Part shown: positions 3,461 through 57,541 of the stretch, in pieces | Position numbering within the stretch: position 1 is the stretch's first letter | Layout: each line of letters opens with the position of its first letter | NCBI RefSeq assembly: GCF_006345805.1 | Contig: NC_043008.1 | Location: forward strand, 45,508,001 to 45,572,000 | DNA: 64,000 nucleotides | DNA from: Octopus sinensis | Taxonomy: Eukaryota | Direction: 5' to 3' | Notes under the pieces: generated by a model | Told to the model about the DNA's origin: nothing | What the model saw: only the letters and a program-made list of their open reading frames with translations | Database searches by the model: none | Position numbers and translations under genes: made by a program

Positions 3461-3523
3461 AGATAAAACTCTGAGTTTCAGATGCCGAAGTGGAAATCCG
3501 CAACACCATTTCTTCGTTTATCT
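3461..3523 (-). ncRNA. Inverted, more degenerate copy of the 3580-3642 hammerhead (core ACGAAGA)
   Basis: Reverse complement reads agataa-ACGAAGA-aatg...catc-t-GAAACTCAGAGTT-ttatct. Confidence 0.45.
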
Positions 3524-3579
3524 TGCTATTTGAAAACGCTTTGAAAATATATATATATACATAGCGTTTTCAAATAGAC

Positions 3580-3642
3580 AGATAACCGAAGAGATGGTGT
3601 TGTGGATTTCCACTTCGGCATCTGAAACTCAGAGTTTTATCT
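3580..3642 (+). ncRNA. Type I hammerhead-like ribozyme (core CCGAAGA, U4C variant)
   Basis: agataa-CCGAAGA-gatg..gtgga.tccac..catc-t-GAAA-CTC.A.GAGT-T-ttatct. Stems I (agataa/ttatct), II and III all pair. Putative cleavage triplet is GUU. Confidence 0.6.
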
Positions 3643-3995
3643 TGGCTATCGAGTAATGTAACAAATTATTGTATAGATAAATTTCCTCTATTTACATAAT
3701 ATTGAGGTCTCTTTCTTTTGTTATCTTACCGTTTTACCAATACATATATACATATATATATATATTATATATATATATATATATACATACATATATATAT
3801 ATTATATATATATATATATACATACATATATATATAATATATATAATATATATATATAATATATACATACATATAATATATATATATATATATATATATA
3901 CATAATATATATATATATTATTATATATATATATATTATATATATATATATATATATATATGTACACATACATATATATATATATATTTTTTTTT

Positions 3996-4193
3996 TTTTA
4001 TAACAATTAAAAATGAGGGTGTCTAAGACACCAACATACCGAAATAGCAGCCGAATTCTGACTATAAAACCACGTTAAATGTTCATATCGTACCATGAGG
4101 TGAACATTTAACGTGGTTTTATAGTCAGAATTTCGACTGCTATTTCGGCATGTTGGTGTCTTTTAGACACCCTCATTTTTAATTGTTATAAAA
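3996..4193. repeat. ~198-bp palindrome (arms ~90 bp, 15-nt loop at 4086-4100)
   Basis: ttataacaattaaaaatgagggtgtc...aaatgttca pairs with tgaacattt...gacaccctcatttttaattgttataa. The right arm continues to about 4270 and resembles 46600-46720. Confidence 0.85.
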
Positions 4194-4841
4194 TTTTTTT
4201 ACCTTTGTAAGGTATTTCTTTCATGCTGGCCACTTGATAATTTTGATACTTAAATATCGATATTATCCTCATATATAAAAATTATATATATATATATATA
4301 TAATACATATATATATATATATATATATATATATATATATATTATATATATATATATATATATACATACTATATATATATATATATATATATATATACAT
4401 ATATATAATATATATATATATACATACATATATATATATATACATACATATATATATATATATATACATACATATATATATATACATACATATATATATA
4501 TATATATATACATACATATATATATATACATATATATATACATACATATAATATATATATACATACATATATATATATATATATACATACATATATATAT
4601 ATACATACATATACATATATATATATATATACATATATATATATATACATATATATATATATATATATATATATATATATATATAATACATATATATATA
4701 TATACATATATATATATATATATACATATATATATATACATACATATATATATATATATACATACATATATATATATATACATACATATATATATATATA
4801 CATATATATATATATATATATATTATATATATACATATATA

Positions 4842-53952: not shown

Positions 53953-54363
53953 ACTGACGCTCTAACCACTGAGCCATGCATATATATATGCATAATATAT
54001 ATTTATATATATATATATATATATATATATATATAATATATACTTATTATATATATACACATATATATATACATATACACACATATATATATATATATAC
54101 ATATATATATACACATATATATACACACATATATATATACTATATATAATATTTCCCACATTATATATACACATATATATATATATATAAACATATATAT
54201 ACACATATATACACACATATATATATACACACATATATATATATATATATACACACAATATATATATATACATATACACACATATATATATATACATATA
54301 TATATATATATATATACATATATATATATATATATGTATATATATATATATATATATATTAAT

Positions 54364-54701
54364 GGTGACCCCCTTCGGTCAGACACTGAACATGGGTTTG
54401 CACCTAGATAGTTACTCTCTGAGGCACAAGTCTGGGCAAGGTTGTCTCATGGAAGACGAGCAGTCGCCCATGCATACCAGCATCACCTCTCCACGTCACC
54501 GATGTTGTCCAAGGGAAAGGCAAGGGCCGATACAGCTTGGCACCTGTGACGTCGCAACTCATTTCTACAGCTGAGTGAACTGGAGCAACGTGAAATAAAG
54601 TGTCTTGCTCAAGAACGCAACACGCAGCCCGGTCCGGGATTCGAACTCACAACCTCACGATCGCAAGCTCGACGCTCTATCCACTGAGCCACGCGCCTTC
54701 A
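54364..54701 (-). mobile_element. Second copy of the 53612 SINE family
   Basis: Collinear with 53612-53952. Head gaaggcgcgtggctcagtgg...gagttcgaatccc. Confidence 0.85.
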
Positions 54702-54829
54702 CACACACACATATAATATAATATATATATATATATATACATATATATATATATACATATATATACGTATATATATATACATATATATACATATATATAT
54801 ACGTATATGTATATATTCACATATATATA

Positions 54830-55757
54830 AATCCTTAAATCCTTAAAATGTTTTAGCCCGAAGGCCGCGGCCATGCTGGGGCACCCCCGCTGAATGAAGC
54901 TACACTAGTTTGTGAATCCACCTCTGATACGTGGCACTTGATCACAATGGAGTTCGATGCTGCTGCCCGCATCCGCGTCTCCTGTCGTGAGGTAGGTTCA
55001 TCTGGGACTCCCAACAAAAAGAGATCCAGTTTAGTTTTAAAGATACCCACATCCACACCATGTAAGTCTCTCAGGCATTTAGGGAGGATGTTAAAGAGCT
55101 GTGGTCCTCTGAAACCCAAGCTGTTGCAGTATCTGGACCTGTATTTTGATGGTGATGTTGGAATCCTTGGCACCACGCAGCGGCGCCCCGTTCTGCGGTT
55201 GGAGTAACTTTAAATGCCAAAGTTTGGGACAAGACCCTCCAGGATTTTCCAGATGTATATCACTGCATATCTCTCCCGCCTCTGCTCTAGGGAGAAGAGG
55301 CTTAATACCTTCAGTCTTTCCCAGTAGCTGATATTTTGCATTGAGATGATTTTCTTCGTGTAGCTTCTCTGAATTGCTTCGAGTTCTGCTGTTTGTCTTA
55401 TATTGTGTGGTGACCAAAGTTGGGAGCAGTAGTCCAAGCGGCTGAGGACAAATGTTTTCCATAGGACCATCAGTGTCTCCTTCTCTCTTGTTCTGAAAGT
55501 TCGGAGAATCCATCCAGCTAGCCGTCTGCATTTTATCACCAGATTAGCAATATGCATTTGGAAAGATGCATCATTGCTGATATCAATGCCCAGGTCACGC
55601 ACTGATTTTGACTCAAGGATTGCAATTCTTCCTGGGCCAGTGTATCCAGTCTTCACGTCATTTACCTTTGTGTGCCAATAGCGCAGGGCCTGGAACTTAC
55701 ATGCATTAAACTGCATGTTGTTGTCCTCAGCCCACCTGTATATTGTGTCCAGCTCAT
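54830..55757 (-). mobile_element. LINE family B, 5'-truncated
   Basis: ORFs 55210-55716 and 54853-55176. Tail (AAGGATTT)n, with (TA)n on both sides. Confidence 0.92.
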
Positions 55758-55949
55758 ATATATATATATATATATATATATATATATATATATATAGATA
55801 TATTATATATATATAATATATATATATATATTATATATATATATATATATACATATATATATATATATATATATATATATATACTATAATATATATATAT
55901 ATATTATATATATACACATATATATATATATATATACATATATATAGAT

Positions 55950-57541
55950 GAGAAAGTTGGTTTGTGAAAGAACGTGGTTGAATATATAGAAAATAGTAAA
56001 AAGTGAAAAGACTACAGAAGGCTTGTTTTAAAAGGTTAAAAAATATATAATTTATTCAATACGTCTGAAGAATATTATAAAATTTTTCCTACAAAGACGT
56101 AGTTTAGAAGAAATGACCGGTTTCGCGTTTAGCTTTTCAAATTCTTACGTCGTTATGTTTATGTTGAGAAGAGTTGTCGTTATGTTTATTTTGAAGAGAG
56201 TTCTAGATAAGGGGAGGTAATAAGTGATTTCTTCCGGTGTAAGGGAGATAATCGCTTAAAATGTTTTGCCTTTCCTTTGGGGTGAATTTCTCTGTATAAG
56301 TATGTTGGAATGGTTAAGTCTGGGCTTGTACTTTTCAATGAAGTATGTTTCCTTGTTTAGTCTAATTTGTGTTGGTGTTCCGATAGCGCATTGGTAAAAT
56401 GGAAAGATTAAAATTTGTGGTAGTAGTTGCTTTGCGCATTTCTCAATGTGCTCACTAAAAGGTATCATTCTGCATTCTGGGAATGCAATCTGTTATCGAT
56501 GCAATGTGCCTCTACGTCTGAGTGAAAGTCCCGTGGATCCCACGTAGTCTTGGTGGCAGCCGGAGCATTTTATGACATAAATTATGTTTTCAGAGGCATA
56601 AGTAAAATTAGATTTGATCTTGAATTTCTGTCCCTCTTTGAAGAGGAATTCTGATCCTTCTAGCAGGTTTGGACATGTTGCACAGTTCGGTCTACCACAT
56701 TTTTTACTTTTGCATCCGTAATTTCAGAAATCAATTTTGCCTTTGTGAGAATCTTTTTAAGTGATTTAGGTTGTTTGTAGCTTTTAATGATTTGGTGTAT
56801 GTTTAGAATTTCCTTTAATTTTGGGTCCTTATGAAGTATTGGTAAATTCTGGGTGATGATGGTGAAGGCTTCTTTGTTTCTGGGGTTATATGTGGATATG
56901 TAAGGTAGTATTTTCTGGGAAGGTGTGTTGTTGTGTTGAACTTTTCTTAAAGTTTCTATGTTGATTTCTGTTGCACGTCTGATCCCATCCTCTATGAGTT
57001 GAGCTGGGTAATGTCTGTCAAAAAGGGTGTTTTTGAGTTCTTGCAGTCTAAAGTTCCTGGTATTTTGTTCTGACACTATTGTGCATATCCTTCTTGCAAG
57101 GTTGAAGGGGATGTTTGTTTTAGTGTGTCTTGGGTGGCATGAATTAAAAAGAAGGTACTGTTTGGCGTCTGTGGCTTTGTAAAAAATGTCTGTTTCTATT
57201 TTAAGGTTAATTTTTTAAATTAGTATATCCAAGAATGGGAGCTCCTTTTGGTTGTATTCCATTGTGAACTGTATATTTGGGTTTATGCTGTTCAATAGGT
57301 TTTTAAATTTTAGGAGTTTATCTGTGTTTTCGTTCCAGAGTATAAAACAATCGTCCAGGAATTGTTTCCAATTCTCTTTTATGTATTGAGAGAGGGGGTT
57401 TCCAAAGATTGATAAAGATTCCTGGTAAATGATTATTTCCAGGTAGCCCATTGTTAGGTTCGCAATGACTGGTGCTGCCCTTGTACCCATAGCAATTCCG
57501 GATTTTTTACGGTAAAATGTATTGTCAAACATGAAGTGGTT
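55950..57541 (-). mobile_element. Penelope-like element (third family), 5'-truncated, degenerate
   Basis: [67 protein letters not shown], and KETYFIEKYKPRLN. Confidence 0.92.
56107..56146 (-). ncRNA. Minimal hammerhead-like ribozyme with U3:A8 core in the PLE 3' repeat
   Basis: The - strand reads aagaat-TTGAAAA-gc taaac gc-GAAA-CCG-GTC-atttctt. Stem III is palindromic (ACCGGT) and the triplet is GUC. It lies about 110 bp downstream of the GIY-YIG ORF end. Confidence 0.7.

Follow-up and report, generated by a model that had tools for sequence, protein, structure and literature searches.

The stretch of DNA analysed here, hereafter the window, comprises 64,000 nucleotides of the 2.72 Gb genome of Octopus sinensis (assembly GCF_006345805.1, contig NC_043008.1, positions 45,508,001 to 45,572,000 of the forward strand) and is rich in (TA)n and in fragments of long interspersed nuclear elements (LINEs). 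A previous interpretation made from the letters alone (the sequence-only reading) had claimed that five distinct sequences in this window fold as type I hammerhead ribozymes, and the sequences, strands and cores of all five were verified as claimed. They belong to five families of Penelope-like elements (PLEs), labelled A to E, and lie at the following positions:

3580..3642, plus strand: family B motif, with a U4C core CCGAAGA and a Hydra-type stem III ACUC-A-GAGU
16407..16496, plus strand: family A motif, with a canonical core CUGAAGA and a long stem II; stem III is damaged in the window copy
24608..24644, minus strand: family C motif, with a U3-A8 core UUGAAAA, an extra G, a 6-bp stem II and a palindromic AAUU stem III
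35551..35588, plus strand: family D motif, a minimal type I hammerhead with an A6U core CUGUUGA at 35556-35562
56107..56146, minus strand: family E motif, with a U3-A8 core UUGAAAA, a 2-bp stem II and a palindromic ACCGGU stem III

In the motif of family D, U6 is position 35559 and N7 position 35560; stem I has 5 bp, an extra A comes after the core, and stem II (GAGC/GUAG/GCUC), GAAA and a palindromic ACGU stem III complete the motif, with predicted cleavage after 35583. The core CUGUUGA had been given correctly in the sequence-only reading, which did not single out the A6U change that is the main subject of this work. PLE hammerheads, their diversity within a genome, the U3-A8 core and the targeting of (TA)n are already known, as is U4C from a viroid; what appears to be new is A6U as the fixed core of a family of ~15,000 copies, the other four motifs being further cases of what was already described.

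A relaxed type I descriptor that tolerates one mismatch in the core, and whose contrast with chance is somewhat flattered by its having been designed after the candidates were known, matched the motifs of families B, C, D and E and nothing further in the window. These four matches compare with a mean of 0.32 and a maximum of 2 over 25 block-wise dinucleotide shuffles, the excess over shuffled sequence that had been named beforehand as a check. The motif of family A was missed because its stem III is damaged in the window copy; in 47 of 49 family matches this stem is the perfect palindrome ACACGUGU. The three decayed copies also claimed before are real: the one at 3461, on the minus strand, is the fold-back partner of B, the one at 32526 a decayed sister of A, and the one at 50255 a decayed D. 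A scan of the window with Rfam gave no hammerhead among the best 150 of 397 rows (microsatellite or hairpin look-alikes), and a search of 12 loci at the gathering threshold gave 0 hammerhead matches, 3 foreign loci with canonical cores included; this miss carries no weight, because control loci with canonical cores were missed too. Families A, C and E combine a canonical or U3-A8 core with the stems and a palindromic stem III, stem II of E having only its 2 bp. The motif of family D has covarying stems I and II, the G10.1-C11.1 pair, the extra base 9/10.1, the palindromic stem III and a cleavage site fitting the NUH rule, but its core is neither CUGANGA nor U3-A8, and we class it as a variant and not as a plain member.

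The prevalence of U6 was established by counting. A 25-letter pattern of the D motif with positions 6 and 7 left free has 15,455 exact matches in the genome (control 0), and the D motif is the most numerous hammerhead motif counted in this genome. U6 occurs in 14,893 of these matches, and among the first 100 listed of the 562 that lack it, position 6 is C in 67, A in 24 and G in 9. With a looser pattern (20,260 matches), U6 was found in 99 of the first 100 listed. Moreover, to obtain a sample independent of the motif, copies were chosen through a flank downstream of it, and the first 70 of 9,998 matches were examined; 61 of these copies could be aligned across the core, and 60 of them carry U6 and one a deletion. 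Over the 28 positions from C3 to H17, a minor letter occurs in at least four flank-chosen copies only at position 7 (U27/A19/C8/G6) and position 17 (A53/U12), the two free core positions in hammerheads. Columns varying by substitution number 2 of 35 in the motif and 20 of 74 in the flanks (Fisher p = 0.01), which also hold many indels, in counts made by hand and with flank variation inflated by low-complexity sequence.

The classes defined by position 7 correspond to subfamilies, with median mutual identities of 76-83%. Older relatives of D (~70-79% identity) retain U6 together with a compensated stem II, GGGC/GCCC, and in one of them (locus L289) a compensated stem I, CUCU/AGAG, and position 17 of the copies with U6 is A, U or, in older ones, C, which fits the NUH rule. 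In an alignment of 23 homologues (9 motifs with U6 and 14 with A6), whose sequences are pattern-chosen and related, 8 of the 9 pairs changed on both sides and 90% of the cells are paired, with a covariation score that was reached by 0 of 500 shuffles and lies beyond all slid controls. Singletons that carry U6 on stems of unrelated sequence (L293, L296, L298, L301, L302, L305 and L306), possibly point mutants of A6 families, were excluded from the U6 families. In four public sequencing runs from four organisms, the summed depth is highest over the D motif, and diverged contigs leave the alignment at 35552 and 35591, the stem I edges of the motif; the 20 runs of the 4 organisms that contain the D stretch are silent on positions 6 and 7, position 7 falling outside the 20 listed differences. 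Some 80 nt upstream of the D core (35476-35495; L211-L280, in several subfamilies), a conserved CGCCATG opens a four-codon frame ending in TAG, a possible small upstream open reading frame (ORF).

The origin of U6 can be approached through the relatives of family D. A sister family in the same genome, with 5,185 matches to the A6 pattern, shares the motif; its core is CUGACGA, its loop has 3 nt and its 3′ flank is related. It consists of ~300-nt modules (L425-L454), of which two copies lie 940 nt apart at one place (e.g., L444/L445), and a D-like ORF was found in 0 of 30 loci; among the families met, it is the foremost candidate for a genuinely non-autonomous derivative of PLEs, although it may just be old and truncated. 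The best relatives of the D protein are ~42-57% identical, those with names coming from sharks, a ray, gar, corals and a snail. The descriptor was also applied to 80 metagenome loci that encode relatives and to 4 viral loci. Motifs are present in 20 of them, 23 in all, and in the 13 cases measured the motif follows the ORF match at a distance of 72-161 nt; the cores comprise 19 CUGA, 3 CCGA, 1 CUGG and 0 CUGU. A6 is ancestral and U6 derived in the D lineage, because the sister family has CUGACGA and the foreign relatives lack U6. Viral contigs gave 4 pattern matches, 2 of them with a stem II and weak stem I; two related IMG/VR contigs (L423 and L424) show CUGUCGA, a 4-bp stem II and GAAACGUU with a poor stem I, and may be due to chance. 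Within family D, 183 copies with A6 are spread over all subfamilies, and among the 30 examined no pair exceeds about 92% identity and one copy is 98.6% identical to a copy with U6, so that the return to A6 has not been followed by amplification, although six A6 copies form an old cluster with no close U6 neighbour in the sample.

Each of the five motifs is the terminal-repeat hammerhead of a different protein-coding, high-copy PLE family, and these families are present in the window as 5′-truncated insertions in (TA)n and their relatives:

3439..3737, plus strand: fold-back tail of family B (Hydra-type), with a direct copy at 3552-3737 and an inverted copy at 3439-3551 that holds the decayed motif at 3461
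15839..16700, plus strand: family A (Hydra-type) PLE, 5′-truncated, with its tail at 15929-16700 and an inverted 5′ fragment at 15839-15928 that contains the 3′ half of the hammerhead
24443..27700 (upstream end approximate), minus strand: family C PLE, with reverse transcriptase (RT)/GIY-YIG, a microsatellite-rich 3′ region, the hammerhead and (TA)n
32450..32806, plus strand: decayed tail from a subfamily that is sister to A (72-77% identity); its hammerhead, at ~32526-32610, is damaged
33896..35685, plus strand: family D PLE, 5′-truncated, with RT thumb, C-x4-C-x2-C linker, GIY-YIG and a 3′ tail that includes the hammerhead and is followed by (TA)n
48332..50406, plus strand: second family D copy, with broken RT and GIY-YIG and a decayed hammerhead at ~50255-50290, where GAAG replaces GAAA and the 3′ arm of stem I is deleted
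55952..57539, minus strand: family E PLE, 5′-truncated, with a broken RT/linker/GIY-YIG frame upstream of the hammerhead

Searches of this genome by BLAST with the modules gave 338 to 2,720 candidates per family, 40 of which were scored and 30 fetched for each. All five families carry the PLE signature: their copies have a fixed 3′ end in common, are truncated to graded extents on the 5′ side and frequently come with an inverted 5′ copy. In the window, (TA)n adjoins the 3′ ends of all five elements. Coding copies exist for every family, with an RT plus a GIY-YIG in C-terminal position upstream of the repeat on the same strand, as called from motifs in the translations, Pfam scores being below cut-off or absent; the PLE terminal-repeat origin that had been proposed for these motifs is in this way confirmed. 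Family D shows at one locus (L166) a 4.4-kb unit with an ORF between two Penelope-type pseudo-long terminal repeats (pLTRs), and E has, as D, its RT, C-x4-C-x2-C linker and GIY-YIG upstream in the window as well as in longer copies. At ≥80% identity, the coding frames of A were found upstream at 23 of its 30 loci and those of B at 21 of 30. For family C, coding sequence lies upstream in 5 of 30 loci, namely the window's own, where a decayed RT (SMDIISLY, YVDD) with a C-terminal GIY-YIG is found at ~25.7-27.7 kb on the minus strand, and 4 more. The placing of two motifs behind RT/GIY-YIG ORFs in the sequence-only reading holds for D and E; the remaining modules, described there as devoid of ORFs, are a C element with a decayed RT/GIY-YIG upstream and truncated A and B elements.

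That A, B and C would be self-standing non-autonomous modules akin to retrozymes, as had also been suggested, seems to us barely credible. The window copies of A and B do lack coding sequence, as does the sister family of D in all 30 loci with regard to any related ORF, but coding sequence sits directly upstream in the loci just counted, that of the window's own C included, the 5′ ends are graded and often inverted, and none of the five motifs occurs in the window in a tandem array of short units, the feature by which non-LTR retrozymes are recognised. The modules of A, B and C are truncated insertions and not retrozymes, because coding sequence follows upstream in other copies and loci. Non-LTR retrozymes (bioRxiv 10.64898/2026.07.22.740005) likewise carry type I hammerheads coming from PLE pLTRs, but are non-coding tandem repeats, in contrast to the coding copies and graded truncation of the five families treated here.

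Regarding their affiliation, families C, D and E share a CX2-5CxxC linker and a Cys pair inside the GIY-YIG, motifs common to the Neptune and Nematis clades. D and E are perhaps Neptune-like and C perhaps Nematis-like. Family C was also considered as a Naiad with a hidden hammerhead, a candidate rejected on account of its C-terminal GIY-YIG. The Hydra clade is marked by a DKT motif, a GIY-YIG without CCHH, a CxCX5C linker and (TA)n targets (PMC8557442), and family B displays all four; family A has the DKT motif and the GIY-YIG without CCHH, its CxCX5C linker not being intact in the copies examined, and it is by these motifs that both are placed in this clade. In its stem III, the hammerhead of B is identical to that of Penelope-3_HM (Craig et al. 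2021, PMC8557442), although the Hydra cores listed in that paper are all CUGANGA and one B subfamily has CCGAAGA, and that of A differs from them by its 55-nt stem II domain.

UUGAAAA was found in 87 of the first 100 listed of 2,487 exact matches for family C and in 98 of the first 100 listed of 752 for family E, and the first 100 listed of the 3,178 matches of family B show C4 in 68 and U4 in 31. U4C is linked in B to one haplotype, with U4 retained in sister subfamilies, and in later copies a change of C11.1 to U came on top of it. Since U4C (CCGACGA) is also present in a second family of this genome (L303:2045, L338:894) and in 3 foreign matches on metagenome contigs (L353, L387 and L398), it arises repeatedly in PLE hammerheads. 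Over 1.07 Mb of fetched loci, a set enriched for the five query families and with overlaps kept, the descriptor gave 336 matches in 33 motif clusters; taken with exact copy numbers that run from hundreds into thousands for each family, this sustains the earlier proposal of many PLE lineages, each with its own variant. The companion claim that most cores are non-canonical is true of the window (4 of 5) and fails in the wider sample, where 18 of the 28 motif clusters met incidentally have a CUGANGA core. Among them there are many further hammerhead families (L006:204, L114:306, L236:1175, L177:2747 and others), which combine a canonical core and a long stem II domain with a palindromic stem III of 6-12 nt. 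A repeat family (L286, L292, L300, L304) has CUGAUGA and, ~35 nt later, CUGUUGA or CUGUAGA with GAAACGUG, thus two possible cores, with G at position 17. Unrelated to the hammerheads, LINE fragments (RT, some with AP endonuclease) occupy 1-848, 29345-31795, 36000-38750 and 39150-44240, with others at 2445-3438, 4863-5970, 45053-46115 and 51100-52180, and a run of 100 N, perhaps a gap, lies at about 52190-52300.

Our preferred reading of the D motif, with a probability of roughly 0.55, is that of a hammerhead with A6 replaced by U that is likely still a slow self-cutter, probably only as a dimer or with the assistance of a protein. Selection during retrotransposition would act on the fold of the RNA, U6 would lower cleavage and not abolish it, and the reaction might proceed in a dimer through the palindromic stem III or with the protein of the element, a mechanism borrowed from other PLEs. 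Metazoan PLE minimal hammerheads cleave weakly as dimers in that manner (PMC4209133), and the hammerhead of the Anolis Poseidon element PAc cleaves only with the protein of the element and is unneeded for insertion in vitro, where uncut RNA is the main template (Frangieh et al. 2024, PMC11167929); a weak cutter could be tolerated or even favoured in D if uncut RNA is the template for insertion. PAc differs from D in that its ORF starts inside the motif, C3 and G8 being intact, whereas the ORF of D starts ~700 nt away. Several facts weigh against a cutting ribozyme. Deep mutagenesis found low activity for all mutants of the CUGA turn other than the 3-8 swap (PMC9901934) and a natural A6C variant cleaves at <0.1 per min (PMC3088659), so that low activity is predicted for such a core and its conservation without A6 is puzzling. 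The young subfamilies of D do not vary in loop II either, so that the constraint is more than catalytic; the signal comes from only a few independent subfamilies, and the invariance seen in the 23 homologues is inflated by the choice of sequences through patterns. The 5′ ends of short D copies do not pile up at the cleavage site, 9 of 70 starting in 35563-35596 and none at 35584. Finally, family B was amplified while gaining U4C and then C11.1U, an example of a PLE that spreads although its core drifts. The modelled double hammerhead is never the lowest-energy fold, with U6 and A6 sequences alike, an outcome that is uninformative.

The main alternative, which we find possible, albeit tentative, is that the D motif no longer cuts and is retained as a structured handle for the RT/endonuclease or for a host protein, U6 helping a monomer to close into a rod by pairing of U4-G5-U6 with A15.1-C-G. 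By prediction, U6 pairs with A15.1 at a probability of 0.98 in the U7 subfamily and of 0.42-0.63 in the others, against 0 in every A6 sequence that was folded, but it is also 0 in the older copy L289; the invariant loop II and the poor activity of CUGA-turn mutants (PMC9901934) would suit such a handle, as would the facts that hammerhead mutants of another PLE insert in vitro and that Naiads thrive without canonical hammerheads, whereas C3, G8, G12, U16.1 and the NUH rule are all kept in D, as a catalytic core requires. The same modelled rod would also be compatible with an active, self-throttled ribozyme, in which U6 would be selected for folding the monomer into the closed form and cleavage would be left to be triggered by dimerisation or by the protein that the element encodes, an option that we regard as rather doubtful. 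It is improbable, in turn, that A6U was a neutral loss of function in one master element, the apparent conservation stemming from few master generations and from mutable pyrimidine-rich flanks, where low complexity and alignment errors inflate variation; the drifting core of family B and the small number of independent subfamilies keep this idea alive, but all four letters occur at position 7 and two or more at position 17, whereas the remaining 26 positions of the stretch C3-H17 were held, and the older relatives retain U6 through compensated changes of their stems. We hardly believe in another code as the source of constraint, be it a reading frame, in which position 7 would be the last letter of a Val codon, or a splice acceptor that follows a pyrimidine tract. 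One frame across the motif does read S-V-E-E-R-R-L-E-T, a long pyrimidine tract lies upstream, and helix I marks the end of an intron in D. virilis; the reading frame is rejected because four other four-fold sites (35557, 35569, 35575 and 35581) are invariant and A17 creates a stop in 53 of 65 copies, and moreover upstream indels break the frame and the long ORF of family D begins ~700 nt downstream of the upstream repeat.

Many PLE hammerhead variants are reportedly contained in the work of Lunse et al. 2016. No natural A6U hammerhead was found in the literature covered, outside of which are that work and one supplementary file of PMC4209133, either of which may show the variant. In their general plan, the motifs described here resemble the minimal hammerheads of Cervera and De la Pena 2014 (PMC4209133), with a type I fold in pLTRs, an extra base 9/10.1, the G10.1-C11.1 pair and palindromic 15.2-16.2 positions, all of which D follows everywhere except at position 6; also alike are the many families per genome, the predominance of solo truncated copies and the pairs on opposite strands. 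The representatives compared in the consulted part of that paper all have A6 and its descriptor fixes the core boxes, unlike D with U6 and B with C4. UUGAAAA is listed there for the PLEs of Schistosoma mansoni, and the novelty credited to U3-A8 in the sequence-only reading was therefore overrated. U3-A8, U4C (in a viroid) and A6C (in phage Bcep176) have been described as natural core variants by Perreault et al. 2011 (PMC3088659), a paper whose text, Figure 5 aside, does not mention A6U; as far as that text goes, such variants are rare single cases with tertiary contacts, in contrast with the fixed core of a very high-copy family that we find in D.

The role of PLE hammerheads is still debated, and the published accounts present them as poor cutters, unneeded in vitro and maybe parasites of the element (PMC8557442, PMC11167929). 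In this line, family D offers a natural experiment, where a supposedly crippling change of the core has stayed fixed through several waves of amplification while the two free positions drift, and the same genome provides matched natural controls in the A6 copy almost identical to a U6 copy and in the A6 sister family. Should U6 prove able to cleave, the core as now accepted would be too narrow, and genome censuses based on CUGANGA would miss large families; if the self-throttled form were true, D would be a natural hammerhead invisible to such searches. If U6 does not cleave, PLEs would keep the shape of the hammerhead for a role other than cutting.

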